This document shows positions 1 to 21,530 of a DNA stretch of 64,000 nucleotides, one piece after another. Within the stretch, counting starts at the first letter, position 1; each line of letters begins with the position of its first letter. The stretch is taken from the NCBI GenBank assembly GCA_965140585.1, contig OZ223268.1:32001-96000 (forward strand), read 5' to 3'. Both the position numbers and the translations under genes were made by a program. A model generated the notes under the pieces. That model made no database searches. It was not told the DNA's origin and saw only the letters and a list, made by a program, of their open reading frames with translations. The stretch is from Spirochaetia bacterium (GTDB lineage Bacteria; Spirochaetota; Spirochaetia; UBA9216).

Positions 1-487
1 TAACAGTAAGCTGAAGCTGCCCTTCACCGGAAAGACCAAGCAGATAATCGCGGCCTTCTGCCGTAACACTTAAGAGCTCTGAATAATATCCCAATGTCTC
101 CGGAGAAAACTGAAGGACAAGATCTTCTTTTGATACACCGGCTTTAAGGGTATACGGGAATTCAGGCAGCCCTGAGCTTATACTGAAGGCACTGTCTTCA
201 TCGACAAGAATGCTTTCAATCACGATATCTGATTCAGTTGTATTTTCAATAACAAAGGAAGCTTCTGTTGTTTCGCCGAGGATTATTTCACCAAAATCGA
301 GCTCTCCGATGTAACCCTTAATGACACTTTCCGAAGTACCATCATCATAGCCTAAGAATGTAAGCCCAATCGATTCACCCGGGGCAAAAATTTCACATCC
401 GTGAAGCAACAGGCTTAACATCAGAATACCGGACAAATAGGCTGATATTGATTTATAATTTCTTACTGTACTTTTTTTCACTTTCAT
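1..487 (-). CDS. Lipoprotein with choice-of-anchor D/ASH-type Ig-like domain (runs off window; not in ORF track)
   Basis: Manual translation from ATG 487: MKVKKSTVRNYKSISAYLSGILMLSLLLHGC (lipobox), then LDFGEIILGETTEASFVIENTTESDIVIESI...FSPETLGYYSELLSV; open to position 1; starts 2 nt after the prsW stop. Confidence 0.8.
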   Translation of the reverse strand, partial: MKVKKSTVRNYKSISAYLSGILMLSLLLHGCEIFAPGESIGLTFLGYDDGTSESVIKGYIGELDFGEIILGETTEASFVIENTTESDIVIESILVDEDSAFSISSGLPEFPYTLKAGVSKEDLVLQFSPETLGYYSELLSVTAEGRDYLLGLSGEGQLQLTV

Positions 488-489
488 TT

Positions 490-1149
490 TTATTTTCTCC
501 TTACTCCGCCTGAAACTCTTTTTCTTCCAAAAATGTTGAACAAGTAGTGCTGAACGAAAAACAGAAAAACCGGAATGATAATTCCCAGGACCTGCAGAGA
601 TTCAGTTAATCCTGATAAATTGTAAATTGAATGAATTGTAGATGAAAGAATGAACATTCCCGCCAGCAGAGGCAGAGATAAAAATTCATAATCCATCATA
701 ACCTGAATTGCATAGCCGACAAGGGCTGTCATTGACCCATGCAGAACACAGGCTGTCAGGCTCCTTGTTATGATAAAAAAAAGGCTGTCACTGATCCCGT
801 TTGAAGTGGTGATTGTAAGATAGAGATAATTCTCAAGAATCGAAAAACCAATTCCCACAGCCATTGCATACCTGACTATATTATACCGGGAAGTACTTTT
901 GTTCTTTCTCATAAAAATCAAAAGGGGTAAAAACTTGATAACTTCCTCCATGACGGGGATTATCTGACTCAGCAGTAAAGTTTCATCCGGAATGATATAG
1001 GTATCAATAAATATATTTATAAAATAAACCAGTATTGTAGAAGTAAGCCCCCAGGTGAAAAATACTATGAGCCTTCTATACTCTCCCTTAATTACCATGA
1101 TAAGAAAAAAAAGCGGAAGCAGTGTTCCAATGTACAGAGCTTCTATCAT
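490..1149 (-). CDS. prsW: PrsW-family glutamic-type intramembrane protease
   Basis: Multi-TM protein with EExxK (MEEVIK), GIGFSILEN, and two His motifs (VLHG, IHSIYN). Confidence 0.9.
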   Translation of the reverse strand: MIEALYIGTLLPLFFLIMVIKGEYRRLIVFFTWGLTSTILVYFINIFIDTYIIPDETLLLSQIIPVMEEVIKFLPLLIFMRKNKSTSRYNIVRYAMAVGIGFSILENYLYLTITTSNGISDSLFFIITRSLTACVLHGSMTALVGYAIQVMMDYEFLSLPLLAGMFILSSTIHSIYNLSGLTESLQVLGIIIPVFLFFVQHYLFNIFGRKRVSGGVRRK

Positions 1150-1871
1150 ATTAATTTCTCCTCATTGAATACGAAAATACCGCAGGTAAAATATATTATT
1201 ACAAATGGCATCAGCATATAATTCAGCAGAGGCGGAAGGTAGGCGGATATTCCCGTGTTATCAAAAAAGCATGTCATATCTATTAAACCGGAGGCCGATA
1301 CCGTCCATGTATACCATGAGAAGTATTTTGCATTTTTTGCGGGAGAGATTGATACCGACATAGCCCTTGCAATTATAAAAACAAGAAGCAGAGCGAAGCC
1401 TGATGTAACCCAGCCTTCCTTGTTGTAAAAATGAAGTCCAGAAGGAACAGCCAGCAGCATATAGGGAAGCAGCCGCCTTGCTCCGGACTTTTGTTCCCGC
1501 TTCCAGATTCCTGTTTTTACAAAGTATCTGCTTAAGCCCGTTATAAGCAGATAATACAGGTAGATGCCAGGATCTCCGAAGGGAAGCCGGTATGCCGGAA
1601 ATCCTGTTATGTGCCGGAACATTCTGTCTGCCGTAAAACCGAGAAGTCTGCCGCTTAGAATAAATACCGGGATAAGAATGAAAGGGCCGTATTTAAATCT
1701 TTCAATATTTGATGCCGCAGCTATAACAGCCGGCACGGCGGCAAAAGAAAACAGAATCAGAACAGCGTATTCTACCGGAAGAGGACTCAGCTTCAAATAA
1801 TAATCGGTGATTAATCCAGCAAGGAGTACAGAATAGATTATTATCAGTACCGGCAGAGCTTTCTGCTTCAT
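1146..1871 (-). CDS. Hypothetical polytopic membrane protein
   Basis: 241 aa, about 7-8 hydrophobic segments; 4-nt overlap with prsW. Confidence 0.75.
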   Translation of the reverse strand: MKQKALPVLIIIYSVLLAGLITDYYLKLSPLPVEYAVLILFSFAAVPAVIAAASNIERFKYGPFILIPVFILSGRLLGFTADRMFRHITGFPAYRLPFGDPGIYLYYLLITGLSRYFVKTGIWKREQKSGARRLLPYMLLAVPSGLHFYNKEGWVTSGFALLLVFIIARAMSVSISPAKNAKYFSWYTWTVSASGLIDMTCFFDNTGISAYLPPLLNYMLMPFVIIYFTCGIFVFNEEKLI

Positions 1872-1887
1872 AGGCTTAAATACATTC

Positions 1888-3594
1888 CTAAAGTCTAATC
1901 ACGAATGCAGCGTTAACCTGAAAATCGATTCCGCTGCTGTCGGAAAGATCTCCGCTGTCATCTGTTTCGCGGCCGAGGTCGATATCCCATGGTCTTGTTT
2001 CACCTGTTATAACAGCATTCCCTATAGTTGAGAAATTCTGCATATCAATTACGAAGTTTAATTTTTCACCCATCGGAAGAATAACTCCGGCCTTTGTTCC
2101 AATCTCCCAGGTTAAATCTCCGGACGCATTTTTCTCTTCCCATACACTTCTGGTATCTGTGTTATATGCCCGGTATACTTCAACTGAATACAACGCCGAT
2201 ACAGAAGCATCAAAGAAGAACCTGAAATCTTTACCGGGATTAACCGTATATCTTGCAAGCAGGTCTGCGCTGTGGATATAGGTTTCGGAGGGGTAGAGAT
2301 CATTGTCCGCACTTAGACTGTCGTCTGCCGGATCTGTTCCAAGACTGAGTTCGGTATAGTGATTTGTGTTAAGACTGTTATATGCACTGACACCGGCCGC
2401 GGTATCCGCATTCTGTGAATATCGCTCTGCAAAAAGTGAATAGCCAAGCCCGATTCTAAACCTGGACTTTTTTTCCTGATTAATAAATTCCAGTGCCAGC
2501 ATAGCATCAAAACTGCTTAATCCGGCATCATAGATATACTCAGAATAGCTGTCATCTGTTTCAGATTCAGCAAGCTCATGTTCCAGGTAGTAATAATATG
2601 TGTAGTCAAGCGGTGTATAACCGGCTTCTGCAATAAAGGAAAACGTCTTTGATAATGGCATCACAATGGCTGCTTTTACATCAACATTATTGTTTACCGC
2701 ATATTCCTGATGTTCATAGGAGGACAGCTGATACAGTTCACTTGCCTCATTGTAGTACTCCGGCCCGCCGTCAGCTGCCGGGAGCAGGTAGTAATCCTCG
2801 AGGGTATAGATGGTATCAAGATACCCGTCAGCATCAGTATCGACAGCCTTGTATTCCCGGTTCAGATCATCATAGTACCCGCTGTAAAGAAGGCTGAAAT
2901 AGAGTCTGTTTTTTTCAAGCGGCATATTAAAACCAAGAGTACTGCTGTAGGTATGCATATACTCATCAGTGTTATCCTGCCCCGATAATAATTGTGTGTA
3001 TGCGAATGCCGGACTGTATGAGCTGTCAGTTACCCAGTTGTAAAACTTCGGATCATATGTAAGACCGTATCCGAATGACAGACCGCCCTCTCCGTCTTCT
3101 CTCGAGAGAAAGCCGAAGTAGATATCAGCCGAACCGCTGTAATTATTTTCATTATACTTATCGATTACATCTTCGGTAGAACTGTTGTAGTTAATGCTTT
3201 CAGTTTTTTCACCCCGGTGTTCTGAGTTGTAGGACAAATCCAATCCGAAAACTCCCGGTTTATCTTCATTCTTTTTAAGTATGGTGAAGTCAGCATATGG
3301 AAGAATTTCATAAGAACTGTATGTTTCAGTTCCGCCGTCTGCCCCTATCGAATCATCAGAACGTTCATCACCCGTTCCGGATAGATTAAAATCCGTATCA
3401 AGATTTCCAAGAATCATATCACTTGTAATTCCCATAAGAATTGATGGATTATCTATATAATCGAATTCCGGATATAAGGCCGACGTACTTTCACCCTGAA
3501 AAAGAAGATTTGTTTCATCTAAATCTTCACCGGCGACAGAAAAGACAGCAGCTCCGAAGATTAAAAACAAGAAGAATATTTTTTTCATATACAA
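1888..3594 (-). CDS. Secreted acidic protein, probable outer-membrane beta-barrel
   Basis: Signal peptide; alternating amphipathic strands (FGLDLSY, FRIGLGYS, LTWEIGTKAGV); C-terminal strand FQVNAAFVIRL. Confidence 0.65.
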   Translation of the reverse strand: MYMKKIFFLFLIFGAAVFSVAGEDLDETNLLFQGESTSALYPEFDYIDNPSILMGITSDMILGNLDTDFNLSGTGDERSDDSIGADGGTETYSSYEILPYADFTILKKNEDKPGVFGLDLSYNSEHRGEKTESINYNSSTEDVIDKYNENNYSGSADIYFGFLSREDGEGGLSFGYGLTYDPKFYNWVTDSSYSPAFAYTQLLSGQDNTDEYMHTYSSTLGFNMPLEKNRLYFSLLYSGYYDDLNREYKAVDTDADGYLDTIYTLEDYYLLPAADGGPEYYNEASELYQLSSYEHQEYAVNNNVDVKAAIVMPLSKTFSFIAEAGYTPLDYTYYYYLEHELAESETDDSYSEYIYDAGLSSFDAMLALEFINQEKKSRFRIGLGYSLFAERYSQNADTAAGVSAYNSLNTNHYTELSLGTDPADDSLSADNDLYPSETYIHSADLLARYTVNPGKDFRFFFDASVSALYSVEVYRAYNTDTRSVWEEKNASGDLTWEIGTKAGVILPMGEKLNFVIDMQNFSTIGNAVITGETRPWDIDLGRETDDSGDLSDSSGIDFQVNAAFVIRL

Positions 3595-3600
3595 TTTCCT

Positions 3601-4929
3601 TTATTTAAATCTGTGATTATTTTTCATATCAACTAATTTTACGTCTTCTTCAGATGAATTGATTCTGGCAGATATTCCTTTAAGCATCCTGCTTCCCGCT
3701 TCTTCATCATCAACTTCATAGTCGTAGTATTTATAAACGTACTTGGTTTCAATTTCATAATACACATCGTTAATATACTCTTCCGAATACCTGATGGATG
3801 TCCGGTCATACAGCAGTGTTCCTCCTTCCGTATAACGGCATTCTTCAAGCAGATTCGAATCATCATCATAACTGTAGCTTGTATATTCGGTGACAGAGCC
3901 GTAGAGACTGCGAGTTTCCTTTGTGATGTTGCCGAGAGAATCGTACTCGATATTAAGAACAGTATACTTGGAACCGATCTCATCTATATCGATATCATAG
4001 GTAAAGGGATCCGTATCGCCGGTATTGAGATCATCAAATGACAGATTGTCGTAAGTTCCGCTTGAGATCTGCGGAACGCTGTCCACTGATTCTCCGTCAG
4101 CGAGAAGATCATAAAGATAATCAGCCTGTTCATATACGTTACCGTCTTCATTACGTTGGTAGCGGGTCAGGTAGTAAAACTGGTCATCAGCTTCAACAAA
4201 GGGGTTGTAGGATGAGTGGTAGAGCTCATACAGATATTCCCAGGATTCATCATCATACCAGCATGCATATTCCTCCGTAAGAAAAAGATCATAATCGCCG
4301 TTGTCGGGGGCTTCAGCCGCGAAGTATTTTTCAGTACGGTAATACAAATAATCATAGTCATCTTCCAGATAGGTTACTTCCTGCCGGGCAATTATTTCAT
4401 CACCTGAGCCGGTGACTTTATAATCTATAATCTCTGTATATTCACTGTAATTTATCGTATCAGAGTCTGTTCCTTCAGAATTAATGTTTGTGTAAGCAAC
4501 TGTGTAATATAATCCGAGTTCGCCGTCATCGGAGGTATCTGAGGGCGCACGTGTTTCAGCACCGCTTAGCAGGTAGTCATATACAGTCTCTCCGTCATAG
4601 AGGTAAAAATCTTTCACATAGCTGTAAATATAAAACTCGACAAGAGTCTCTTCACCTTCTGTTACGCTGTATACATCAGTTTGTGTATTAAGATAAACCC
4701 CGTCGGAATCTTTATATGTGTACCTGTAAACCGCACTCAAAATTCCGTTTTCATCATAGACTCTCGTTTCAACCGGTTCCAGATCGTACTGTTCGGGATC
4801 AACATATTTGCTGAATGTAACTTCTTTCGAATAATAATCAATTGTTCCTTCTGATCCACTGTCCAGATCGCAGGAGACAAGGATTATCAGTATAATTGTA
4901 ATAATTAGATAAATGTATTTACTTTTCAT
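3601..4929 (-). CDS. Tyr/Asp/Glu-rich lipoprotein with YD-like repeats
   Basis: Likely start MKSKYIYLII at 4929 (ATGA overlap with upstream stop); lipobox LVSC; motifs YDENG, EYDSLGNITKE, YSYDDDSNLLEE. Confidence 0.75.
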   Translation of the reverse strand: MKSKYIYLIITIILIILVSCDLDSGSEGTIDYYSKEVTFSKYVDPEQYDLEPVETRVYDENGILSAVYRYTYKDSDGVYLNTQTDVYSVTEGEETLVEFYIYSYVKDFYLYDGETVYDYLLSGAETRAPSDTSDDGELGLYYTVAYTNINSEGTDSDTINYSEYTEIIDYKVTGSGDEIIARQEVTYLEDDYDYLYYRTEKYFAAEAPDNGDYDLFLTEEYACWYDDESWEYLYELYHSSYNPFVEADDQFYYLTRYQRNEDGNVYEQADYLYDLLADGESVDSVPQISSGTYDNLSFDDLNTGDTDPFTYDIDIDEIGSKYTVLNIEYDSLGNITKETRSLYGSVTEYTSYSYDDDSNLLEECRYTEGGTLLYDRTSIRYSEEYINDVYYEIETKYVYKYYDYEVDDEEAGSRMLKGISARINSSEEDVKLVDMKNNHRFK

Positions 4930-6446
4930 ATTTCCAGACTTCCATCCCAGTTCCAGAAGGGCCACTTATCATCCCAGATATCTATAGGGATAGTGAGTAT
5001 CTTGAGTCCAACTTCGGCATATGCCCCCGCTTCGGCATAGGCTGCAATAATCCAGTCATCGAAGTTGCCGTAAAATCCGTCATCGGTGTTATAGCCCATT
5101 ATACCAAGCGGCTCGACATATCCGCCTACAGTCAGGTAGATTCCTCCGCCGCCTTCCAGTTCGACAAGATCGATACCAAGCAGTCCGAGGCTTCCGCCAA
5201 TGTACAGACCGGCCTTTGTTGTGACTTCTGCGGCAATTGTAGGCCGGAAGGCAAAGTTCATATAATTATTATCAAATGCAGGTTTAAGCTTGTATGGAAT
5301 ATAGGCCATGGATAGTTTGCACTCTCCGCCGAGTGTCATTCTGGAGTATTCTGAAACCTCAGCTGTCAGCGAGACGTTCCCGTCCACACTAATTTTTGCA
5401 GAAATCCCAACGGAAATTTTTATTGTCGTATTCGGATCAAGGAATATAACCTCAAGCAGAGGAACCGAAAGCTCGGATGCAAGCGAGGCAGTTCCTATCA
5501 GTTTGAAGTCAAACTCCTGGGCTATGGTTGCAATACATTTAACTGATCCGCTTTTAAAATGGAATTCAGGATGATAAACAATCCACCAGTCATGAACCCA
5601 TGACACCGTACAGCTGGGCTTATTAAGTCCACCTTCAACTCTCAGCTGCTTAAGGTTCAAAGTTCCTTTCAGCTTGATTTCACCCGAAGCGCTTATTTCA
5701 AGTTCAGTCTCAGAAAACTCATTATCGTCATCTTTATCGTCATCTTTATCATCATCTTTATCGTCATCTTTATCATTGCTGTCGGAGTTCTGGTTGTTCT
5801 CTTTTTTCTTCCCCTCTTTAGCAATCTTCTTAAGCCCTTCAATGATCTCTTTTTTAACTTCCTTTTTCCAGAGAGTTATATCAACATTAAATGAACGCAG
5901 GGTATCAAGATCATCAACCTCAGGATCTGTGTCGTACCATAGAACCGATCTTAAATCTGCAGTTGTCTGTTTAAAAGACGAAGAAAGCTTATCAGCCTCA
6001 GCAGCATTCTTAGGAAGAAGAGTGACTCCCTTTGAAAGCGATGCTCTGCCGAGGCTGTCCTCAGTACAGCTTATATCAAACTCGGGAATAGATACTCCGT
6101 TGAACACCTCTTCGGGTCTGGGAGCAGTGGTTTCTATTACCGTTTTGCCATTGTATTCATATATGTCGACTACCTTTCTGGCTTCATTATCTGCTGTAAT
6201 AAAAATGGAGCCGATTTCCAAATCATCAGGAGTTGAAGACCTTTTCGGAGTATTGGCTGATCTGGAAAATAGAGTTCCGATAGGTCTCAGATCTATTATA
6301 CCGTCAGTAAATATTGCGTTGATGCCGGACATCGGGACATCGGCAGATACAGAAAAAGCTGTGAAAAACAGAAACATAATGAAGGAAACCAAGCCCTTCT
6401 TCATTAAACCGTAATTATTACTATACATTTTAACATCCTGATTCAT
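4926..6446 (-). CDS. Secreted hypothetical protein with DKDD low-complexity linker and Gly/beta-rich C-terminal domain
   Basis: 506-aa ORF; signal peptide from MKKGLVSF (alternative start 6404); (DKDD)4 tract. Confidence 0.75.
   Translation of the reverse strand: MNQDVKMYSNNYGLMKKGLVSFIMFLFFTAFSVSADVPMSGINAIFTDGIIDLRPIGTLFSRSANTPKRSSTPDDLEIGSIFITADNEARKVVDIYEYNGKTVIETTAPRPEEVFNGVSIPEFDISCTEDSLGRASLSKGVTLLPKNAAEADKLSSSFKQTTADLRSVLWYDTDPEVDDLDTLRSFNVDITLWKKEVKKEIIEGLKKIAKEGKKKENNQNSDSNDKDDDKDDDKDDDKDDDNEFSETELEISASGEIKLKGTLNLKQLRVEGGLNKPSCTVSWVHDWWIVYHPEFHFKSGSVKCIATIAQEFDFKLIGTASLASELSVPLLEVIFLDPNTTIKISVGISAKISVDGNVSLTAEVSEYSRMTLGGECKLSMAYIPYKLKPAFDNNYMNFAFRPTIAAEVTTKAGLYIGGSLGLLGIDLVELEGGGGIYLTVGGYVEPLGIMGYNTDDGFYGNFDDWIIAAYAEAGAYAEVGLKILTIPIDIWDDKWPFWNWDGSLEI
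5728..5775. repeat. 12-bp tandem repeat x4 (TCATCTTTATCR) encoding DKDD
   Basis: Units at 5728, 5740, 5752, 5764. Confidence 0.9.
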
Positions 6447-6447
6447 C

Positions 6448-6906
6448 CTAATAATCTTTCATAAAAACACTTTCATCATCATGCTGCTCAACCACACCGC
6501 GAAGTTCACCATCCTCGTCATACCCGAAGTATGTATTCATTTCAGTTCCGTCCGATGCACTTCTGCTGATTTGGATAAGCTTGTCATTATCATCATAGAC
6601 TTCTTCGGTATACCAGGTAACGGCGGTTTCAGAACCACCTGTCGGAGTAGATACTGTCCTGGCCAGGTAGCCTGCCTCATCATATTCGTAGGTGACTGTT
6701 TTACTTATTTTCTGATTAGAATCATAGCTGAGCGTTTTTAACAGTGTCTTTCCGTCGGAACTGTATTCATATTCGTTGAGAACATCATTTGTATCCTGAT
6801 CGATTATGACAAAACTTTTGCTCTCCTCTTCATCAGCAAAGAGCCCGCAGCCCCATACTGATAAGACAGCTGCAGCTAATAGAGCTGCTGGTATCACATT
6901 TTTCAT
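6448..6906 (-). CDS. Small lipoprotein with YD-like repeats
   Basis: Lipobox VWGC; YEYSSDG, YEYDEAG, YDDNDK, YDEDGE; RBS GGAGGAG. Confidence 0.85.
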   Translation of the reverse strand: MKNVIPAALLAAAVLSVWGCGLFADEEESKSFVIIDQDTNDVLNEYEYSSDGKTLLKTLSYDSNQKISKTVTYEYDEAGYLARTVSTPTGGSETAVTWYTEEVYDDNDKLIQISRSASDGTEMNTYFGYDEDGELRGVVEQHDDESVFMKDY

Positions 6907-6920
6907 ATTTTCTCCTCCGG

Positions 6921-7088
6921 CTACCTTCTTATATGCTGAGAAGGCGGTCTTCTTGCGGCATCCAGGAAATTCATATCATCAAAAACCGGAAAATGGAAAA
7001 ACTGACCAATAACAAACCCTAACAGCAGAAAAACAATCGGAAAGATTATTGCTCCGGCTTTTAAACTTTTCTTTTTCTTTTTAGCCAT
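6921..7088 (-). CDS. 55-aa single-pass membrane protein (missed by ORF track)
   Basis: MAKKKKKSLKAGAIIFPIVFLLLGFVIGQFFHFPVFDDMNFLDAARRPPSQHIRR*; RBS AGGAG upstream; first gene of the operon. Confidence 0.75.
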   Translation of the reverse strand: MAKKKKKSLKAGAIIFPIVFLLLGFVIGQFFHFPVFDDMNFLDAARRPPSQHIRR

Positions 7089-7131
7089 AGTTTTGCTCCT
7101 GAAACTGTTGAATTTTGTATTTACAGTTATT

Positions 7132-7189
7132 TTTATATACCCGGTTCACAAGTAATTCGTCCGGCTGTATCCAGTGAGACTTTTTTTTT
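7132..7189 (-). promoter_or_regulatory. Putative activator box overlapping -35, plus -10 hexamer (shared motif, copy 1)
   Basis: Minus strand: A9-GTCTCACTGGATACAGCCGGACGAA-18 nt-TATAAA; same spacing as copies at 21451, 37913, 40353. Confidence 0.55.
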
Positions 7190-7238
7190 AATTAATGACA
7201 ATTTTTTTTATAATCATTACAATGAATAAGTGAAATAA

Positions 7239-8357
7239 ATGAATACAAGGTTTATTTATCCTACAATTACAGCCATCGCAATATTTCAGTCCTTCTTTTA
7301 CTTTCTGCTTCTTCTTAAAGAAAAGAGTAAAAACAGGAGCAATCTGTACCTGGGATTCCTTGTTCTGTCTCTTGGTTTAAGCTTGACATTTGAGATAATC
7401 TATCCGACAGACTGGTATGAATATCTGCATTTTCTGATTAAGAGCTATGTCCCATGCCAGTTTCTGATTGGCCCCTTCCTCTTCTTTTATATCAGATCTC
7501 TGACCAGTGAAACTCCACGCTTCAGAAGGATAGATTTAATCCATTTCCTTCCGTTTATAGCTGTTATGATTTACCTTGGTCCGTTTTTTCTGTCACCGGT
7601 AGAGGATAAAATCGAATATGCCAGAGCATATGTTATCCAGGGGCGCGATAACTTTATCGAAGAATGGGTAATCTGGCTGGGTATGCAGACTTCATTATGG
7701 GTGTACGGTATTAAAAGCCTGCTACTAACTCACCCGGTTTTTCAGGAACTTAGGAAAAAGAAAGATATCAGAATGTTCCTGAAGAACTGGCAGCTGCTGC
7801 TTTATTTTGCAATATTTCTTACACTGGTTCTATATCTGGCCGGCAGTATAATGATGCTCGCCGGATGCAAGCTCTGCGAATTCAACCACACAATAACCCT
7901 CATGTTGACTATAATGATCATGGGTCTCGGTCTTGTAGGAATGAACCGTATGGACAGGGTAACAAAACCCCTTGTACTGAAAAGAAAGGGCAAACCGCTG
8001 AGCAACAGCGAAATAATGAATCAGATTACAGAAATACTTAATCAGCACAAATACTACCTGGACCCCGAGCTGACACTTGAGGGCCTGGCTAAAAACCTTG
8101 AAATTTCACGTACTGAACTCTCAAAAATAATTAATCAGAACTGCGGTAATAATTTTTACGATTATATAAATTCCTTCAGAACCGATGAGTTTATCAACAG
8201 ACTGCGGCTTGCTGAATACAAGAACAGAAATATTCTGGACATAGCCTTTGATGCCGGTTTCAATTCAAAATCAACGTTCAACCGGGTATTCAAGGAACAA
8301 ACCGGAAAAACGCCTCTGCAATATAAAAAAGACCTCGCAAAAATCAATGCTGAATAA
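7239..8357 (+). CDS. Membrane-anchored AraC-family transcriptional regulator
   Basis: N-terminal multi-TM domain; C-terminal YLDPELTLEGLA...NFYDYIN...IAFDAGFNSKSTFNRVFKEQTGKTP. Confidence 0.93.
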   Translation: MNTRFIYPTITAIAIFQSFFYFLLLLKEKSKNRSNLYLGFLVLSLGLSLTFEIIYPTDWYEYLHFLIKSYVPCQFLIGPFLFFYIRSLTSETPRFRRIDLIHFLPFIAVMIYLGPFFLSPVEDKIEYARAYVIQGRDNFIEEWVIWLGMQTSLWVYGIKSLLLTHPVFQELRKKKDIRMFLKNWQLLLYFAIFLTLVLYLAGSIMMLAGCKLCEFNHTITLMLTIMIMGLGLVGMNRMDRVTKPLVLKRKGKPLSNSEIMNQITEILNQHKYYLDPELTLEGLAKNLEISRTELSKIINQNCGNNFYDYINSFRTDEFINRLRLAEYKNRNILDIAFDAGFNSKSTFNRVFKEQTGKTPLQYKKDLAKINAE

Positions 8358-8382
8358 TACCTCCGGCTATGTCCGTACCGTT

Positions 8383-9456
8383 CTACTGCTCAAGAATATG
8401 AATTGAATTTGGATCCATCGAGAATGAAAGATTCTCACCTACTCCGATAGTCACCTTCCGCATTGGATTGTTCTCTGATATTTCATATGTCTGTCCAAAC
8501 AGCTCAACCTCATATTCATGATGCGATCCCATAAATACACTCTTCGTAACAGGGGCGCTGAAACCCTTTCCGCCGATTATGAAAGATTCAGGGCGAATCA
8601 TAAACTTGACAGTTTCGCCGACGGCATGGCCTGTGGTTTTTTCAGTTTCATATACAACACCATGTATATCCAGTGATACTTTATCTGCCTTTTCAGAGAT
8701 TATCTTTCCTTCGAGGATATTTGCACGTCCGATAAACTGTGCGACAAAGTCATTAACCGGTTTCTGGTATATTTCATGCGGGGAGCCGACCTGCTGAATG
8801 GCGCCGTCTTTCATTATTACGATCTTGTCTGAAAGCCCCATCGCCTCTTCCTGGTCATGAGTAACATATATGGAAGAAATCCCGACCTGTTTCTGAATTT
8901 TACGTATTTCATCTCGCATATGAAGCCGAAGTTTAGCATCAAGGTTTGAGAGAGGCTCATCAAAAAGAAGAACTCCCGACTCCATTATCAGAGCTCTTGC
9001 CAGAGACACCCGCTGCTGCTGGCCTCCGGACATTTCAGACGGAACCCTGTCTGCAAAATCTTCCATTTTCATCAGGCCGAGTATTTTTGCCACTCTCTGC
9101 TTAATCTCAGATTTGGGAAGCTTCTGCAGTTTCAGCCCGTATGCAATGTTATCATAGACATTCATATGCGGAAAAAGCGCATAATTCTGGAAAACCATGG
9201 CAGTGTCGCGCTTATCCGGGGTCAGGTTAGCTACATTCTTATCACCGATGTATATTTCCCCGGATGTCGGGATCTCAAATCCCGCAAGCATTCTGAGGGT
9301 TGTAGTTTTACCGCAGCCTGAAGGCCCCAGCAGACAGACAAACTCGCCGGGTTCGATAATCAGATTAACATTATCTACAGCTTTTACCTGTTCATTTTTA
9401 TTTGTAATGAAGGTCTTGGTAAGATTCTTCAGTTCTACTTTAATCTTGTTATTCAT
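8383..9456 (-). CDS. ABC ATPase, FbpC/AfuC/PotA family
   Basis: GPSGCGKT, MSGGQQQRV, LLFDEP, YVTHD, C-terminal TOBE-like region. Confidence 0.93.
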   Translation of the reverse strand: MNNKIKVELKNLTKTFITNKNEQVKAVDNVNLIIEPGEFVCLLGPSGCGKTTTLRMLAGFEIPTSGEIYIGDKNVANLTPDKRDTAMVFQNYALFPHMNVYDNIAYGLKLQKLPKSEIKQRVAKILGLMKMEDFADRVPSEMSGGQQQRVSLARALIMESGVLLFDEPLSNLDAKLRLHMRDEIRKIQKQVGISSIYVTHDQEEAMGLSDKIVIMKDGAIQQVGSPHEIYQKPVNDFVAQFIGRANILEGKIISEKADKVSLDIHGVVYETEKTTGHAVGETVKFMIRPESFIIGGKGFSAPVTKSVFMGSHHEYEVELFGQTYEISENNPMRKVTIGVGENLSFSMDPNSIHILEQ

Positions 9457-9474
9457 TATGCACTAACTCCATAT

Positions 9475-11175
9475 TTATTCGGTACTGATATTTTTCACAA
9501 AGATCTTTATTACAAGCATTGCCGCACTGACTATCACGATCAGCAGTGTACAGTATGCTGATGCTACTCCCATTTTACCGACATCAATCTGAGCCATAAT
9601 GGTTGTAGTCAGTAGCTTGTATCTGGCTGAAATAAGAAAGATAACTGTACTAACCAGGGTCATACTTCTGGCGAATGTAAAGATAAGGCCGTTGAGAAAG
9701 GCGTTTTTAATCATCGGGATTGTAATGCTCGTAAAAACTTTCCGGCTGGAAGCGCCGAGGACATTGGCGGCTTCCTCTATGGAAGGATCAATCTGCTGCA
9801 GAGAAGTGATTCCTGAACGAACACCGACTGGGAGACTTCTTATAATGAATGCCATGATAATTATAAAGGCCGTACCCGTGATAGGCGGTATAAGCGTCAG
9901 GCCGAATATACTGTAGGTTTTATTGTAGCTGATAACATACCCCAGACCAATAATTGTTCCGGGAATGGCAAGGGCCATTATAGTTGTAAACTCTATAAAC
10001 GATTTTCCGAAGAATTTTTTCCTGACAATCAGGAAGGCTATAATCATTGCAAGTATTCCCGACACCGGAGTGGCTATTGCCGACAGCATAGTTGTGGTAA
10101 GAACAGGCTGAAAGAGTTTCGGTTTAAAAACATACCTGTAATGATCGAGTGTAGGCGTATAGTTAACACCCCATAGTTTTACAAAGGAACCTATGGGAAT
10201 GAGTACATACATGAGTATTACAAAGAGAGTAACTATCAGCAGAATTATTGTTGCAGGTAGGGTGACGTTCCGGCTTGTCACAAGGTCGCGGTGTCTTGAA
10301 ACCTTGCCGGTAACCGTAACATATGACTTCTTGCTTACATAGTATTTCTGAAGGACAAAGATGGATATCGAAATTGAAAGCAGAACCATTGCAAGCGCAG
10401 TTGCCGTCCCGAACTGATAATTACCGATTCCCTCCTGATAAATCTTCACAGCTACAGTCGTAAAGTTTCCGCCGATAACTACCGGATTTGCAAAATCGGC
10501 AATCGACTGTATAAAAACAAGAAGAAAGGCGTTTGCAAGTCCCGGGACAGTAAGCGGAAGAGTAACTGATGTGAAAACCCTGAAACGTGATGCTCCCAGA
10601 TCCCTGGAAGCCTCCTCTACTGAGGGGTCAATCCGCTGCAGAAGAGCTACCAGCATCATGTATGCAATAGGAAAGAAGCTTAGCGACTGTACAAGCACCA
10701 GGCCGTGAAAGCCGTAGATTTCGGCATCCTTGATTCCGAACAGGCCGCGGGTTATAAGACCGACACGTCCGAAGAGAAGAATGGCGGAGAGAGCTACAAC
10801 GAAGGGCGGAGAAATAATTGGCAGAACGGCTATAAAATCGAAAATCTTTTTAAACCTTATTTTCAGGTAGGTCGTCGCATACGCAAAAATAAAGCCTACA
10901 ATTACTGAAATTGTAGATGTGACAGCACCCAGGAAAACTGTATTTACAAGGATGCGGACGTTTCCGTACATTGAAAATACAGCCTTGTAGTTTTCAAAAA
11001 TATTAGCTGTCTTTGTTGTCAGACTTTCGACAATGATATTGTACAGAGGGATTATTATAAAAAAGGTTACCAATGCAAGGGTGAATATAATAACAGCAAG
11101 CAGCGCCGGATCGTTTTTCAGACTTGCAAGGATCTTGAGTTCACTCTGAAGTTTCAGTTTTCTGGAGTTTTTCAT
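9475..11175 (-). CDS. ABC permease, FbpB/AfuB family (fused duplicate)
   Basis: Two EAA loops (EEASRDLGAS, EEAANVLGAS); about 12 TM. Confidence 0.93.
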   Translation of the reverse strand: MKNSRKLKLQSELKILASLKNDPALLAVIIFTLALVTFFIIIPLYNIIVESLTTKTANIFENYKAVFSMYGNVRILVNTVFLGAVTSTISVIVGFIFAYATTYLKIRFKKIFDFIAVLPIISPPFVVALSAILLFGRVGLITRGLFGIKDAEIYGFHGLVLVQSLSFFPIAYMMLVALLQRIDPSVEEASRDLGASRFRVFTSVTLPLTVPGLANAFLLVFIQSIADFANPVVIGGNFTTVAVKIYQEGIGNYQFGTATALAMVLLSISISIFVLQKYYVSKKSYVTVTGKVSRHRDLVTSRNVTLPATIILLIVTLFVILMYVLIPIGSFVKLWGVNYTPTLDHYRYVFKPKLFQPVLTTTMLSAIATPVSGILAMIIAFLIVRKKFFGKSFIEFTTIMALAIPGTIIGLGYVISYNKTYSIFGLTLIPPITGTAFIIIMAFIIRSLPVGVRSGITSLQQIDPSIEEAANVLGASSRKVFTSITIPMIKNAFLNGLIFTFARSMTLVSTVIFLISARYKLLTTTIMAQIDVGKMGVASAYCTLLIVIVSAAMLVIKIFVKNISTE

Positions 11176-11197
11176 TATTGCTCCTGATATATTGTAT

Positions 11198-11229
11198 GGA
11201 AAACCGGAAGCCCGACTGGAGCCTCCGGT
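11198..11229 (-). terminator. Hairpin between binding-protein and permease genes (partial terminator/mRNA stabiliser)
   Basis: Minus strand ACCGGAGGC-9 nt-GCTTCCGGT followed by a short T run. Confidence 0.55.
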
Positions 11230-11249
11230 AAATCTTTTTATTGAAAATC

Positions 11250-12293
11250 CTACTCGGTAGGTGCTGTTGTGCTTGTTTCAAGACTGAAACGCTCAACAAG
11301 ACGTTTTTTGTTTTCACCTGCCCACTGGAAGTTGTAGTCAATAAGCTTGGTATCCTTTATCGGCATGGCTTCTTCAGGCGGAAGAGCATCCTTATTTGTA
11401 AGGAACTGGAAAGATCCTACAGTCTTGCCCATTTCCTGAACTCTTTTTGTAAGAACCCAGTCTATGAACATCTTTGCATTTTCCTGATCAGGTCCGTTCT
11501 TAAGAAGTGCAACACCTCCTATTTCATAACCTGTCCCCTCAAGAGGAGCAGAAATTATAATATCCTTGTATCCTTCCTTTTTATACTTGATAGCATCATG
11601 CAGGAAGGTAATTCCAACAGTTGTTTCACCAAGACCGGCCATTCTGCCCGGTGCAGTACCTGATTTGGTGTACTGTCTTACATTCTGGTTGAATTTTTTA
11701 AAGTATTCCATTGCCTGGTCCTCACCCATCATCTGAACGAGTGTAGCAAGCATAGTATAAGCTGTTCCTGATGAACCCGGATGTGCAACTACAATTTCCT
11801 GATTGTATTCAGGCTTTAGCATATCCGCCCATGAAGTCGGCATTTTAAGACCTTTCTCGGCAAGCATTGCCTGGTTTCCTACGAAGCCGAGGTAGCCGAT
11901 GTAGATACCGGTCCATACACCGTTGGGATCCTTGAATCCGTCGCGTATGTTTACAGCTTCAGGAGAAATATAGTGTTCAATTATACCTTCCTGATCTGCA
12001 GCAACAATACCGTCAACCGGACCGCCGTACCATACTGAGGCTGTCATATTGTCTTTTTCAGCCTTAAGTCTGGCAAGAATTTCACCGCTGCTCATTCGGA
12101 CAAATTCGGTCTCGACACCGAATTCAGCTTCGAATTCCTCAGCAATCATAGCGGCATGGTCTTCCTGAAGACCCGCATAGAAAACAAGTTTTCCTTTATC
12201 CTCTGAAGCTGCTTCCTGTGAACCGCCTGCAAATACGGCAGCAGAAGCCATAATAAACAGCACAAGGGTAAGAGCTGTCATTTTTTTTAACAT
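11250..12293 (-). CDS. ABC substrate-binding protein, AfuA/FbpA-like (Fe3+ or sugar-phosphate class)
   Basis: Signal AVFAGGSQE; RMSSGE, HPGSSGTAY, YTKSG, GTGYEIGG; RBS AAGGAGG. Confidence 0.9.
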   Translation of the reverse strand: MLKKMTALTLVLFIMASAAVFAGGSQEAASEDKGKLVFYAGLQEDHAAMIAEEFEAEFGVETEFVRMSSGEILARLKAEKDNMTASVWYGGPVDGIVAADQEGIIEHYISPEAVNIRDGFKDPNGVWTGIYIGYLGFVGNQAMLAEKGLKMPTSWADMLKPEYNQEIVVAHPGSSGTAYTMLATLVQMMGEDQAMEYFKKFNQNVRQYTKSGTAPGRMAGLGETTVGITFLHDAIKYKKEGYKDIIISAPLEGTGYEIGGVALLKNGPDQENAKMFIDWVLTKRVQEMGKTVGSFQFLTNKDALPPEEAMPIKDTKLIDYNFQWAGENKKRLVERFSLETSTTAPTE

Positions 12294-12366
12294 TTCATAT
12301 CCTCCTTAATGATATTATAAATACTATAAATCAGGAGTATCGAATTGGAAACTGCAGGGAATCAAT

Positions 12367-12405
12367 TGTAACCATACTGTTACGGCATTGTAACCCTATT
12401 GTAAC
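12367..12405. promoter_or_regulatory. Four direct repeats TGTWAC at 11-bp period (OmpR/PhoB-type boxes)
   Basis: TGTAAC 12367, TGTTAC 12378, TGTAAC 12389, TGTAAC 12400. Confidence 0.8.
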
Positions 12406-12489
12406 TTGCAAAAACAGCTTATCCGTGTTCAGACAGCATCAATAAAAAAAATATAGACATAGAAACAATTAACTGTACAATAATAGATA

Positions 12490-13737
12490 ATGTTCAGCCG
12501 GTTCAATCAGCAGGATAAGCTGCGTACAACTGTAAATATAAGCCGCCTTGCAAGGCTTCCGCTCCAGACTTCAGCTGCAGCTCTTTATTTTTATGCGGTA
12601 CTCAGTCAGCAACGAATAATCTATGCAGTCCTTGTAATAGTCAGCGCCGCATACTTTACCTTCTATTTATTCTGCAGCCTGACCAGACAGTATCACCTGC
12701 TTAACAGTCATGCGACATCTATTCCGGACATGCTTATTACCGGAGCTTTAATGCTGTTCATTTCACCCTTTTTAATGCTGCCCTTCGTATATATCCTCAC
12801 TGCCGAACTGGTTCTTGAGAAACAGCACCGGAATGTCATTATAATTTTTACAGTGCTTACATCAGCTGCAATGATTTTTCAGCTGATTTACGGAGGCCGG
12901 TTTTTATTTCTCGCCTTTCTGCTGCCGGCAGTCTGCGCGCAGATCGGTGTCGCTATAATTCTTTACATTCAGAACAGCACAAATAAAACTAAATATGAAT
13001 ACATGAAGAAGCTTGTAGACAATAAAAACAAGCTGCTTTCAACGCTCACACATGAACTCAGAACTCCCCTCTCTGTGATAAAAACCTCAAATGAGCTGAT
13101 AATGGAGGAGAGACCGGGCCCCATTAACGATACGCAGAAAGCGCTTATTCATTCATCCATCGAAAATACCAAAAGACTTAACGCTCTGGTGGAAAACATC
13201 CTCTCACAGGTAAAGGTTGAGTTCGCCTGGTTTTCGATGAAGCATCAGCCTATTGATATTAGAAATATAATCAGGAAAACAGTACTGGATATTAAACCCT
13301 ATCTCGATACCAGAGGGCAGAAACTGAAATATAATTATCCCTCACTGATGTCAAAGACAATCGGAGACAGAAAATGGCTTGAACAGGTACTGCTTAATCT
13401 TATCCATAACGGAAGCAAAAACAGTCCCGAGGGTTCCGAACTGCTGATTTCCGTTCAGGAAAACGAACAGTGCATTGTCGTTTCTGTTCATGACAGGGGG
13501 TCGGGAATAGAAAACAGAGAGATACCGCATGTGTTCAATGAGTTCTACCAGTCAACTGATCCCTCAAAAAACCTGAACGACGGTGCAGGACTCGGTCTTA
13601 CAATAGTAAAAGATATAATAGAACGCCATAAGGGCGAGGTATACATAAGTTCCATGCCGAATGCCGGAACAACTGTCTCATTCACCCTCCCCCTCTATAA
13701 AGGAGTATTCTCTGGAACAGTCAATCCTGATAATTGA
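12490..13737 (+). CDS. Sensor histidine kinase, multi-TM without large periplasmic domain
   Basis: H-box THELRTPL, N-box NLIHNG, DRGSGI, GAGLGL. Confidence 0.93.
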   Translation: MFSRFNQQDKLRTTVNISRLARLPLQTSAAALYFYAVLSQQRIIYAVLVIVSAAYFTFYLFCSLTRQYHLLNSHATSIPDMLITGALMLFISPFLMLPFVYILTAELVLEKQHRNVIIIFTVLTSAAMIFQLIYGGRFLFLAFLLPAVCAQIGVAIILYIQNSTNKTKYEYMKKLVDNKNKLLSTLTHELRTPLSVIKTSNELIMEERPGPINDTQKALIHSSIENTKRLNALVENILSQVKVEFAWFSMKHQPIDIRNIIRKTVLDIKPYLDTRGQKLKYNYPSLMSKTIGDRKWLEQVLLNLIHNGSKNSPEGSELLISVQENEQCIVVSVHDRGSGIENREIPHVFNEFYQSTDPSKNLNDGAGLGLTIVKDIIERHKGEVYISSMPNAGTTVSFTLPLYKGVFSGTVNPDN

Positions 13738-14398
13738 AGACGACCCGCACCTTGTAACAATTCTGGACTTTCTGATGAAGGATGAGGGATACAGCACCCT
13801 TACTGCCGGAAGCGGAGAAGAAGGCCTTAAAATAATCCGGGAGAATATTGTTGATCTTGTGATACTGGATATTAATCTGCCGGGGATCAACGGCCTTGAA
13901 GTCTGCGACCGGATAAAGGAAATGACTCAAATTCCGGTAGTCTTTCTAAGCGCAAGGGATCAGGACAGCGATGTTGTTTCAGGGCTGGAAACCGGAGGTG
14001 ATGACTATATCAGAAAGCCCTTCAACCACCGGGAGCTGATACTAAGGGTGAAAAAGCTGCTGAAAAGATCCCGGCCGCAGAATGATCAAAGTATTATTGA
14101 AACCGGACTTCTGACGATTAAGACAGACAGAGAACAGGTATTCTTTGATTCAAAAGAAATAAAACTGACGCCCATGGAATACCGGCTTCTTGAAGTACTT
14201 GGAAGGAAGCTGGACTGGGTAATATCATGGCAGGTTCTTCTTAAGGAAGCCTGGGGATATGAAGACTGGGACGGCGGGCGTGAGATAATCAAGGTTAATA
14301 TACGCAGACTGAGAATTAAAATTGAGCCGGATCCGGCTCAGCCTGTATACCTGCTGACCGAACGCGGCCGCGGATATAAACTTGCGAGGATTAAATGA
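13661..14398 (+). CDS. OmpR/PhoB-family response regulator (true start possibly CTG at 13712)
   Basis: IIEDD, LDINLP, DDYIRKPF, winged-helix VNIRRLR...RGRGY. Confidence 0.93.
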   Translation: MPEQLSHSPSPSIKEYSLEQSILIIEDDPHLVTILDFLMKDEGYSTLTAGSGEEGLKIIRENIVDLVILDINLPGINGLEVCDRIKEMTQIPVVFLSARDQDSDVVSGLETGGDDYIRKPFNHRELILRVKKLLKRSRPQNDQSIIETGLLTIKTDREQVFFDSKEIKLTPMEYRLLEVLGRKLDWVISWQVLLKEAWGYEDWDGGREIIKVNIRRLRIKIEPDPAQPVYLLTERGRGYKLARIK

Positions 14399-15480
14399 AA
14401 GACTATCTTCAGCTTAGCGGCATCACAAAGGTCTTTAATCCCGGCAAACAAAACGAGGTGACAGCCCTTGAAGATATTGATCTGAGAGTCAGAGAGGGAG
14501 AGTTTGTAACTATACTCGGACCTTCAGGCTGCGGAAAAACTACAGCCCTCCGAATAATTGCCGGTTTCGAAATACCCACAGCTGGGGATGTCTTCATTGA
14601 CGGCGATAATGTGGCAAAGCTGACCCCCGATCGCAGGGACACATCGATGGTTTTTCAGAACTATGCGCTTTTTCCGCACCTTACAGTATTTGAAAATATT
14701 GCGTACGGCCTGAAGATTAGAAGCCTTTCCAGAGATGTAATCCGCAACGATGTGGCAATGGCCTGCCAGGTGGTTAATATGGTGGGGATGGAAAAGCGCT
14801 TTCCGGGAGACCTGTCCGGTGGTCAGCAGCAGAGGGTTGCCCTTGCCCGGGCCCTTGTGATGAAGCCGAAGATGATTCTTTTTGATGAACCATTATCCAA
14901 CCTTGATCTGAAACTGAGACTACAGACCCGGACCGAAATAAAACGTATACAGCAGCTGCTTGGAATGACAATCCTGTATGTAACTCATGACCAGTCTGAA
15001 GCCTTAAGCATGTCTGATCATGTAATAATCATGAACCATGGGAAAATCATCCAGACAGGGACTCCGGAGGAAATCTACAACAACCCGGCTAATTCCTTTG
15101 TAGCCGATTTTATCGGAAACGCGAATTTCATTTCTGCAGTAGTTGAAGAAACCGAGGGCCGAAGGGTGACCGTCCGACTTGGGAAGAGACTCATCATCAT
15201 AGAACAGGAAACCCCAGCGGAATCATTCTCGGAAGGCGAAGAAATATATCTGGCAATTAAGCCTGAAGCTGTGCATTTTTCAGATTCAAAAACAGATTTT
15301 TCAGGAATCGTAGAAGTAAAATCATTTATCGGACCGTACACCGAGTACAAGATTGAATTTGAGGGTTCATTTATAAACGTCTACCTGCCTAATCAGGGCG
15401 CAGATATGAAGATTTACCGGCCCGGGGACAGAGTATATATGGTTTTCGATAACAGCCGATTCCATATCTACAAGAAATAG
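14395..15480 (+). CDS. Second FbpC/AfuC-family ABC ATPase, in the two-component operon
   Basis: GPSGCGKT, LSGGQQQRV, ILFDEP, YVTHD; ATGA overlap with regulator. Confidence 0.93.
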   Translation: MKDYLQLSGITKVFNPGKQNEVTALEDIDLRVREGEFVTILGPSGCGKTTALRIIAGFEIPTAGDVFIDGDNVAKLTPDRRDTSMVFQNYALFPHLTVFENIAYGLKIRSLSRDVIRNDVAMACQVVNMVGMEKRFPGDLSGGQQQRVALARALVMKPKMILFDEPLSNLDLKLRLQTRTEIKRIQQLLGMTILYVTHDQSEALSMSDHVIIMNHGKIIQTGTPEEIYNNPANSFVADFIGNANFISAVVEETEGRRVTVRLGKRLIIIEQETPAESFSEGEEIYLAIKPEAVHFSDSKTDFSGIVEVKSFIGPYTEYKIEFEGSFINVYLPNQGADMKIYRPGDRVYMVFDNSRFHIYKK

Positions 15481-17033: not shown

Positions 17034-17708
17034 TCAATTCTCGAAGCGGAGACTCACCTGGGCATTGGATTTGTGGACTTTTCCAACCAGATCATTACCC
17101 AGACTCTGCTGTATTTTTATCCAGAAGGCGTTATTACTGACTTTCAGCTTTGAGAGATCACGGCTGGTCCAGAATTTGAGCCGGATCGGCATATCGGATA
17201 TTACATCGGCGGATGTCGGCTTTCCGGAGAGAAAACTCATCTCACCGATAAAATCACCCCGGCCGAGTATTGCAACGGTATTTATTCCGCTTTGTACATA
17301 TGCCTTTCCATCAATTACGATAAACACAGCTTCAGCCTTCACATTCTTTCTGAGTACATATCCGCTTTCGATGCTTTTATCCTGACCCATTTTCCAGAAT
17401 TTCAGAAACTCACGATGTGTCATATGAAGAAAATTGGAATTGTATATATCTTCCAGCTCTGCCGGTATTTTTACATCCCTTCTCTCAAGCAGCAGCAGGA
17501 TAATACGGTAGAGGTTTATGACAAGAAAAACACAGTTCCAGAATACAACTATAGGGTTTCCCTGTTTATTTCCGGTATAGATGAGCAGAATCTGTGCAGA
17601 TATCATAAGTATTCGCAGAATAAGAATATTTCGAACTGCCAGTCCGATTAGAGTACAGAGGTAGGCAATATTCATGATAATCAAAGTAGCTGAAAGACTG
17701 AAATCCAT
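17034..17708 (-). CDS. Popeye-like membrane protein with cyclic-nucleotide-binding domain
   Basis: 3 TM (NILILRIL...WNCVFLVINL), then cNMP fold with FIGEMSFLSGKPTSADV. Confidence 0.8.
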   Translation of the reverse strand: MDFSLSATLIIMNIAYLCTLIGLAVRNILILRILMISAQILLIYTGNKQGNPIVVFWNCVFLVINLYRIILLLLERRDVKIPAELEDIYNSNFLHMTHREFLKFWKMGQDKSIESGYVLRKNVKAEAVFIVIDGKAYVQSGINTVAILGRGDFIGEMSFLSGKPTSADVISDMPIRLKFWTSRDLSKLKVSNNAFWIKIQQSLGNDLVGKVHKSNAQVSLRFEN

Positions 17709-17711
17709 ACT

Positions 17712-21499: not shown

Positions 21500-21530
21500 T
21501 AACCTAAATAATAATTAAGGGAGATATTCT

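Follow-up and report, generated by a model that had tools for sequence, protein, structure and literature searches.

The left end of a 64,000-nucleotide window of the Spirochaetia bacterium contig OZ223268.1 (the whole stretch of DNA analysed here; positions below are those of the window unless a locus is named) holds, at 2..7088, an operon of eight minus-strand genes, all predicted to encode envelope proteins, in which a stand-alone intramembrane protease of the PrsW family is encoded together with a set of exported proteins. The genes are referred to as g1 to g8 from left to right, the divergent AraC-family gene as g9 (Table 1), and the related loci returned by a contig scan as L001 to L011. 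Tentatively, and with a chance that is put somewhat below even, the locus is read as a self-contained, vertically conserved envelope operon of the Spirochaetota that consists of two modules and uses PrsW as a dedicated processing protease. The exported module would comprise the barrel protein (g4), a secreted protein (g6) and three lipoproteins (g7, g5 and g1), joined in some relatives by a lipoprotein of about 335 aa and a C11 peptidase lipoprotein. Together they would build a complex, in the outer membrane or at the surface, for binding or handling a ligand that is either extracellular or periplasmic. The inner-membrane module would comprise PrsW, the gene coupled to it (g3) and g8. PrsW would cleave a membrane protein encoded in the operon, most probably g8 near its juxtamembrane motif, with g3 as the alternative, and this step would couple the inner membrane to the assembly, maturation or control of the exported module, PrsW thus not acting as a site-1 protease of an anti-sigma factor.

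The contig scan, made with the alignment of g6, returned 11 loci: one on a 2.2-Mb contig of a Spirochaetia metagenome-assembled genome (MAG) that is a 90% relative of the window (L001), eight in further Spirochaetota MAGs (L002-L009) and two in Faecousia (L010-L011). When all window proteins were compared with these loci using tblastn, the order g8-g7-g6-g5-g4-g3-g2-g1 was found in L001, L002, L003, L005 and L006, and in L004, L007 and L008 it holds for as much of the operon as the contigs include; protein identity across the conserved operon loci is about 24-64% (values for each gene are given in Table 1). Sequence upstream of the operon is available in seven loci (L001, L003 and L005-L009; the contigs of L002 and L004 break off about 100 nt ahead of g8). 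The neighbours found there are a short-chain dehydrogenase/reductase gene (L003), a divergent gene for an OmpA-like protein (L005), a divergent RadA gene (L006 and L007), a gene with a weak cyclase match (L008) and a Macro-domain gene (L009). Because the eight genes are kept together while their flanks change, they are regarded as a self-contained unit, and the eight-gene envelope set of the original prediction, which had been made from the window sequence alone, proves to be a neighbourhood conserved among Spirochaetota relatives. A TraB/PrgY-family gene accompanies RadA upstream of the operon in L003 (158-2513, about 6.6 kb further off), L006 (6481-9068) and L007 (2842-5444); this pair may represent the ancestral neighbourhood.

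Regarding the comparison with L001, the eight genes yielded ratios of nonsynonymous to synonymous substitution rates (dN/dS) of 0.025-0.185 at a dS of 0.23-0.66, which corresponds to purifying selection and indicates that even g8, with its 55 codons, is a real gene, as are the other seven. The ratio was 0.030 for PrsW and 0.025 for g8, 0.003-0.030 for the genes of the flanking ABC transporter and 0.06-0.185 for g3 and the exported proteins; for PrsW and g8 this is the level of constraint seen in the flanking ABC transporter. Across positions 1-12293 the identity to L001 is 99-99.7% for the ABC transporter proteins and only 85-93% for g3 and the exported proteins of the operon, with dS at a similar level. 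The lower identity of the exported proteins fits a looser constraint on surface-exposed proteins.

The composition of the operon varies at two places. In the most divergent locus, L009 (813-8512), g7-g6-g5-g4 are directly followed by g1 and a gene of the approximately 335-aa type, and no g8, g3 or PrsW was detected in this locus, even at relaxed thresholds; the joint absence of the three, a single case, suggests that they form a separable inner-membrane module. The g1 region of L009 contains a run of N. Behind g1, the four loci L002, L003, L005 and L009 carry the gene for the lipoprotein of about 335 aa, which has no assigned family and shows 30-48% identity between these loci, and L002 and L003 add a lipoprotein with InlB B-repeat and Peptidase_C11 (clostripain) domains (E 1e-61 to 3e-67). 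These extensions lie at 8291-10971 (L002), 17599-20275 (L003), 17732-18739 (L005) and 7478-8512 (L009); L001 and the window have neither kind of gene.

The protein encoded by g2 consists of the PrsW domain alone, with no fused toxin. It matches PF13367 over residues 26-198 with an E-value of 1.2e-22 (80.9 bits, cut-off 23.5), in agreement with the label that it had first been given. The motifs E68-E69-x-x-K72, F102-x-x-x-E106, H137 and H173-x-x-x-N177 are invariant in all six orthologues; the motifs listed for Bacillus subtilis PrsW are EExxK, FxxxE, H and HxxxN/D (passage in PMC12943098). To judge from these residues, g2 has an intact PrsW active site and is apparently an active enzyme. With 60-63% identity in L002, L003, L005 and L006, it is the best conserved protein of the operon. 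A search of PDB sequences with g2 yielded no match, and its score against the NCBIfam model NF033739 (31.8 bits, cut-off 225) shows that it is not an equivalog of the RsiW-cleaving type.

The stop codon of g3 overlaps the start codon of the PrsW gene as ATGA, and the two genes are translationally coupled. The g3 protein has at least five hydrophobic segments; it yielded no Pfam or NCBIfam match, seven orthologues compared with Pfam gave nothing below E 0.04, and only unnamed clusters were found in the ESM Atlas. Its orthologues are poorly conserved (24-31% identity). The possibility that g3 is a degenerate PrsW or a PrsW paralogue was rejected, with an hhalign probability of 0.06 against PrsW.

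The first gene of the operon, g8, is preceded by AGGAG 7 nt upstream of its ATG and encodes a peptide with a Lys-rich N-terminus, one transmembrane helix (residues 13-31) and a conserved tail of 24 aa, which reads, from the outer end of the helix, G-Q-F-x-H-x-P-A-F-D-D-Y-N-L-L-D-A-M-R-R-P...H-R-R. Orthologues of g8 are present in L001-L006 and L008; at 5551-5663 of L007 relaxed tblastn found an orthologue split over two frames by an apparent frameshift, which is either an assembly error or a pseudogene. The single match obtained when g8 was searched for among longer proteins was P0105 (218 aa, on a 6261-nt ENA contig), in which a proline/lysine-rich, TonB-C-like sequence is joined to a full C-terminal g8; the fusion is probably a run-on gene call or artefact, and it hints that g8 is immediately preceded by a TonB/TolA-like gene in the organism concerned. 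Three features make g8 the best candidate for a PrsW substrate in the operon: its topology, the conserved juxtamembrane motif and a constraint as strong as that on PrsW. A complex prediction with the alignments of PrsW and g8 gave a score of 0.00 (mark 0.32), a run without controls that speaks neither for nor against binding. One more specific scheme is conceivable, namely that PrsW cuts g8 at G-Q-F-x-H-x-P-A-F-D-D-Y independently of any sigma factor and that the resulting periplasmic peptide of about 25 residues, ending in H-R-R, gates or nucleates an outer-membrane machine of the Spirochaetota built from a FadL-like barrel, the new-fold protein g6 and the YD-repeat lipoproteins; in this full detail it is considered quite unlikely.

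PrsW is known as the site-1 protease of anti-sigma factors. No Sigma70_r2, Sigma70_r4 or anti-sigma domain was found in the 46 further open reading frames (ORFs) of the window, nor was any Sigma70 or anti-sigma domain found in the scanned flanking ORFs (at least 90 aa) of L001-L009, a statement that covers these neighbourhoods and not the whole genomes. To the left of g1, L001 continues with a convergent gene for a LacI-family regulator, a gene for an oxidoreductase of the old-yellow-enzyme type and one further, unscanned ORF. The convergent LacI gene behind g1 implies that the operon ends with g1, and this leftward check, too, reveals no pair of an extracytoplasmic function (ECF) sigma factor and its anti-sigma factor; the initial remark that no such pair was in view therefore holds beyond the window edge. 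Full-text searches of the open-access literature found no description of this gene set, in line with the earlier statement that no described system has it.

Regarding g4, an AlphaFold2 model based on 47 sequences (pLDDT 86.6, pTM 0.83) contains about 16 long strands, the strand count and barrel class having been taken from the DSSP string and the fold matches, not from coordinates. All 50 matches listed by Foldseek against the PDB are outer-membrane barrels, three of which reach E <= 0.001. They include the FadL homologue 3dwo (E 8e-4, TMt 0.39), the BamA barrel and TonB-dependent transporters, and the highest TM-scores were obtained with FadL and TodX (TMt 0.38-0.42, prob 0.99-1.00). No Pfam family was matched at E <= 0.1, Toluene_X/FadL included, and the profile of g4 had no PDB sequence match. 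As no sequence family matches, the model supports the outer-membrane beta-barrel fold class for g4, with no membership in a single family shown; the "probable beta-barrel" of the original prediction is borne out to this extent. The protein begins with a hydrophobic segment (residues 3-21), followed in the model by short N-terminal helices (residues 27-55) that could be a plug. A conserved acidic V-D-T-D-G-D-G-Y loop at residues 251-258 resembles the calcium-binding DxDxDG motifs, and a second conserved stretch at residues 401-422 lies around N409, E415 and P422, N409 being the only invariant column among the 47 sequences. An exhaustive profile search of 1.84 billion proteins yielded 78 representatives of the family at E <= 0.001.

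The likeness of g4 to FadL and TodX bears on the best of the alternatives, in which the operon would serve nutrient harvesting: a FadL-like g4 would import a substrate, hydrophobic or derived from a polymer, that the surface lipoproteins capture or degrade, and PrsW and g3 would be co-located housekeeping genes. The top TM-scores of g4 point in this direction, as do the beta-helix and NosD-like regions of g1 orthologues, the Peptidase_C11 lipoprotein of L002 and L003, and the weak matches of g7 orthologues to DUF4595 (four of 10) and also to DUF3836 (four of 10). However, the conserved set includes no inner-membrane transporter, TonB, ExbBD or catabolic enzyme, TM-scores of 0.3-0.4 in a protein lacking the Toluene_X/FadL match indicate similarity at the level of the barrel class only, and PrsW, as the most conserved gene of the operon, does not look like a passive passenger. 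Nutrient harvesting is considered possible but unlikely.

The three lipoproteins are predicted as such from their signal peptides and lipobox cysteines. The lipobox cysteine of g7, C20, is invariant in ten of ten orthologues, nine of which match PF05593 (RHS_repeat) at E <= 0.1 (best 4.3e-7), the copy in the window scoring 21.0 bits against a cut-off of 22. The family profile of g7 matches the YD-repeat parts of TccC2 (6l7i_G, E 8.2e-5), YenC2 and Tse15 (E 8.2e-5 to 0.006). The DUF4595 matches mentioned above are to a domain annotated as 'porin-like fold', and one g7 orthologue matches PF08139 (LPAM_1). Regarding g5, the signal peptide ends in ...ILVSC, with C20 invariant in eight of eight orthologues; none of the eight matches Pfam, PF05593 included. 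PDB sequences yielded no phmmer match to g5 and a single, chance-level match to its profile (E 1.3). The nearest ESM Atlas cluster has RHS_repeat in 20% of its members (score 0.91), which is a lead only. One YD-like stretch, at residues 340-383, was aligned with g7 by BLAST, and hhalign of g5 with the g7 profile aligned only the signal peptides. Of the two YD lipoproteins originally proposed, g7 accordingly stands, and the label is weak for g5. The signal peptide of g1 ends in ...LLLHGC and is followed by an Ig-like domain (PF22544, E 9.9e-6; NF012200 choice_anch_D, E 1.6e-7, below cut-off), as expected of the Ig-domain lipoprotein described at the outset. Its orthologue in L001 has 610 aa and 85% identity; among five orthologues scanned, those of L002, L005 and L009 contain a right-handed Beta_helix (PF13229), and NosD-like regions occur as well. 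A PDB sequence search with g1 yielded no match.

The secreted protein g6 is composed of an N-terminal domain, a variable acidic linker with a DKDD run and a C-terminal all-beta domain. It had been introduced as a "secreted DKDD protein", of which the predicted secretion is kept, and the DKDD run belongs to the variable, non-conserved linker. Twenty-two homologues were collected, and every named one is from a Spirochaet* organism. In the AlphaFold2 model (22 sequences, pLDDT 68.7) residues 248-505 form long beta-hairpins. Foldseek found nothing in the PDB at E <= 0.001 (best E 0.024, TM <= 0.14), the best rows, at E 0.024-0.06, being leukocidins, OlyA/PlyB, components of the membrane attack complex (MAC) and outer-membrane barrels, which are no evidence for any of these, and the g6 profile had no PDB sequence match. 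Residues 75-200 are 32% identical (pairwise E 1e-8) to a segment of a 992-aa BspA-LRR surface protein of Faecousia (Firmicutes); the two Faecousia loci (L010 9389-12367 and L011 9389-11158) share with g6 this N-terminal domain only, which looks like a mobile extracellular domain.

Another alternative is a role in toxin delivery or competition, akin to the polymorphic toxins associated with PrsW, in which the YD proteins would carry or encase a cargo, g6 would be a beta-pore effector, PrsW would release or process g6, and g3 would confer immunity. In favour of this, g7 is a true YD/RHS protein whose profile reaches the YD shells of TccC2, YenC2 and Tse15, PrsW domains joined to toxins, sometimes via RHS repeats, are described in parts of PMC3482391 and PMC3239186, the best folds of g6, non-significant as they are (E 0.024-0.05), are leukocidins, OlyA/PlyB and MAC, and g3 is poorly conserved and fast-evolving. 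However, the PrsW of the operon is a stand-alone, unfused protein of 219 aa, the eight proteins contain no toxin or immunity family of Pfam or NCBIfam, and PADLOC, applied to nine proteins, returned no defence-system match. The C-termini are conserved instead of polymorphic: that of g6 in 21 of 22 sequences, and that of g7, which reads MKDY plus 0-3 residues (LMKDY in eight), in all ten orthologues. With its 152 aa, g7 also falls far short of the length of an RHS shell, both g5 and g7 are lipoproteins, and the fold matches of g6 do not exceed a TM of 0.14. A toxin system is accordingly regarded as very unlikely.

The divergent gene g9 encodes HTH_18 (PF12833, residues 283-364, E 2.3e-16) and PF00165 (E 5.3e-10), i.e., a C-terminal double helix-turn-helix (HTH), preceded by at least five hydrophobic segments within residues 1-235, and it is separated from g8 by a 150-nt divergent spacer; the divergent multi-transmembrane AraC of the original prediction is thereby recovered. 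AraC regulators often control a divergent neighbour, and the arrangement is kept in L001. Nevertheless, g9 adjoins the operon in L001 alone, the 90% relative, and is absent beside it in the other six of the seven loci with upstream sequence (L003 and L005-L009), and its dN/dS of 0.185 reflects the loosest constraint of the region. The AraC gene is a neighbour specific to one lineage; it does not belong to the conserved system and is at most a local regulator there. Its target in this lineage may be the operon or, equally well, the ABC transporter operon at 8383..12293, with which it is convergent. Since it is found next to the operon only in L001, the AraC protein is an unlikely general substrate of PrsW, contrary to the part originally envisaged for it, and a mechanism in which PrsW cleaves the membrane-anchored AraC, or a peptide controlling it, and thereby switches on the divergent operon is very improbable.

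Several points weigh against the two-module reading with PrsW as processing protease. That PrsW acts on g8 or g3 is our inference. As g3, g5 and g6 belong to no family, the argument for a complex consists of co-location and predicted export. With only about 12 cytoplasmic residues in g8, the output of a cleavage cannot be a released cytoplasmic regulator. The comparison comprises nine loci, all from MAGs and several of them cut by contig ends. In L009 the exported module is present with no adjacent PrsW module, and the coupling of the two may thus be loose, or the missing g8, g3 and PrsW may lie elsewhere in that genome. The fold of g6 is only moderately confident and matched no counterpart. 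Among ten distant members of the g4 family that were looked up, nine are a 'hypothetical protein' with no organism given, and the tenth is a 2356-aa repeat protein of Thalassospira in which one loop region was matched.

The coordinates of the operon, the spacer and the AraC gene are summarized in Table 1. The junctions, as read out from the sequence, have gaps of 2, 16, 6-12, 1 and 14 nt, and two are ATGA overlaps, g3/g2 at 1146-1149 and g6/g5 at 4926-4929; the tight packing first noted (gaps of 16 nt or less, two ATGA overlaps) matches both this read-out and the ORF listing. Two starts are ambiguous. For g4, a TTG gives 568 aa and an ATG at 3588, with AGGA 8 nt upstream, gives 566 aa; the ATG, which is also the start of the database entry P0002, is more likely. 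For g5, the ATG gives 442 aa and an upstream GTG 454 aa. The spacer presumably holds the operon promoter; a single sigma-70-like site was located there, on the plus strand (7195-7223), and promoter-like sites were not enriched (22 found, 22.3 expected in shuffles). A terminator scan returned 11 sites (5.8 +/- 2.6 expected), none convincingly placed to split the operon, and Rfam gave no match at E <= 0.1 over positions 1..13000.

Table 1. Features of the PrsW-containing operon and the adjoining AraC gene in the 64,000-nt window
Feature	Position	Strand	Description	Identity to window protein in L002-L009 (tblastn)
g1	2..487	-	162 aa, N-terminal part, runs off the left window edge; predicted Ig-like lipoprotein; last operon gene	28-33%
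g2	490..1149	-	219 aa; stand-alone PrsW-family glutamic intramembrane protease	60-63% (43% in partial L008 copy)
g3	1146..1871	-	241 aa; polytopic inner-membrane protein, no family	24-31%
g4	1888..3594	-	566-568 aa; predicted secreted outer-membrane beta-barrel	28-40%
g5	3601..4929	-	442 aa; predicted Y/D-rich lipoprotein	25-44%
g6	4926..6446	-	up to 506 aa; secreted two-domain protein	34-47%
g7	6448..6906	-	152 aa; small predicted YD/RHS-repeat lipoprotein	33-45%
g8	6921..7088	-	55 aa; bitopic membrane peptide; first operon gene	37-58%
divergent intergenic spacer	7089..7238	.	150 nt, AT-rich	
g9	7239..8357	+	372 aa; membrane-anchored AraC-family regulator	

To the right of g9, positions 8383-15480 hold the ABC importer operon, which is convergent with the AraC gene and encodes an SBP_bac_6-type binding protein, a fused double permease and an ATPase with TOBE domain; behind it lie a histidine kinase/response regulator pair and a second, orphan ABC ATPase with TOBE domain. 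A series of short ORFs with no family (103-147 aa) occupies 20483-22497; one 103-aa fragment, possibly a disrupted sensor kinase, matches only part of HisKA_2. Envelope genes are abundant in the window: large predicted surface proteins are encoded at 27019-28503, 37995-41904 and 45210-51120, namely proteins with Listeria-Bacteroides repeats (one with SBBP beta-propeller repeats and DUF2690), with LVIVD repeats and with GLUG motifs, and an RCC1-repeat protein adjoining a PEGA-domain protein.

The reality of the unit is clear, and it is as yet undescribed. Orphan homologues of PrsW have been recorded before, in a variety of contexts, and passages of PMC3482391 describe PrsW domains in several settings other than the cleavage of RsiW. 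Here a stand-alone PrsW, apparently active, is part of an operon of genes for outer-membrane proteins and lipoproteins in a phylum of diderm bacteria, with no sigma factor nearby; it is a clean example from nature, with few candidate substrates, g8 and g3, outside sigma-factor control. One predicted role of PrsW other than such control is toxin release. At least four unannotated protein families are defined, those of g3, g4 (with a confident barrel model), g5 and g6, in addition to the lipoprotein of about 335 aa of the relatives. If the two-module reading were true, it would constitute a new use of PrsW-type proteolysis, namely in the building of the envelope in spirochaetes, a group in which the outer membrane is still poorly understood. 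In practice, all carriers so far are MAGs of uncultured spirochaetes, and they are few in number.

Four known kinds of system invite comparison. The first is the FadL/TodX channels, which g4 resembles in its model as a large monomeric outer-membrane barrel with short N-terminal helices before the first strand. The FadL barrel has 14 strands, whereas g4 has about 16 and is about 120-190 residues longer than the matched chains; it carries a conserved acidic loop of the DTDGDGY type, the TM-scores are 0.3-0.42, and there is no sequence-family match. The second is the PrsW-dependent polymorphic toxins, in which PrsW peptidase domains are joined to toxin domains, sometimes via RHS repeats, and which are defined by a PrsW domain placed N-terminal to the toxin in one polypeptide (parts of Zhang et al. 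2012, PMC3482391; for the joined domains also Iyer et al. 2011, PMC3239186). As far as those passages describe them, they share with the present locus a PrsW peptidase and a YD/RHS-repeat protein in one genetic unit, but here the PrsW is a separate protein of 219 aa, toxin and immunity domains are lacking, and the C-termini of g6 and g7 are conserved.

The third is PrsW-RsiW-sigmaW of B. subtilis, where PrsW is also named YpdC. Likenesses are the PF13367 domain, the similar size (219 aa here), all four motifs and a single-pass membrane protein with an extracytoplasmic tail, g8, encoded nearby. Unlike in B. subtilis, no ECF sigma/anti-sigma pair accompanies the protease in the window, in the leftward extension provided by L001 or in the scanned flanks, NF033739 is matched with 31.8 bits instead of the 225 of the cut-off, g8 has almost no cytoplasmic domain, and the partners are outer-membrane and lipoprotein genes. 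The fourth kind is the sorting systems: in exosortase/PEP-CTERM, rhombosortase/GlyGly-CTERM and archaeosortase systems a polytopic membrane protease is encoded in an operon with the exported proteins that it is thought to serve. The grouping of a polytopic protease gene with exported-protein genes is the same, whereas the exported proteins of the present operon have neither a C-terminal transmembrane helix nor a sorting motif, and PrsW belongs to another protease family. The locus belongs neither to the PrsW-RsiW kind nor to the PrsW-toxin kind; it is an intramembrane protease encoded with exported envelope proteins.

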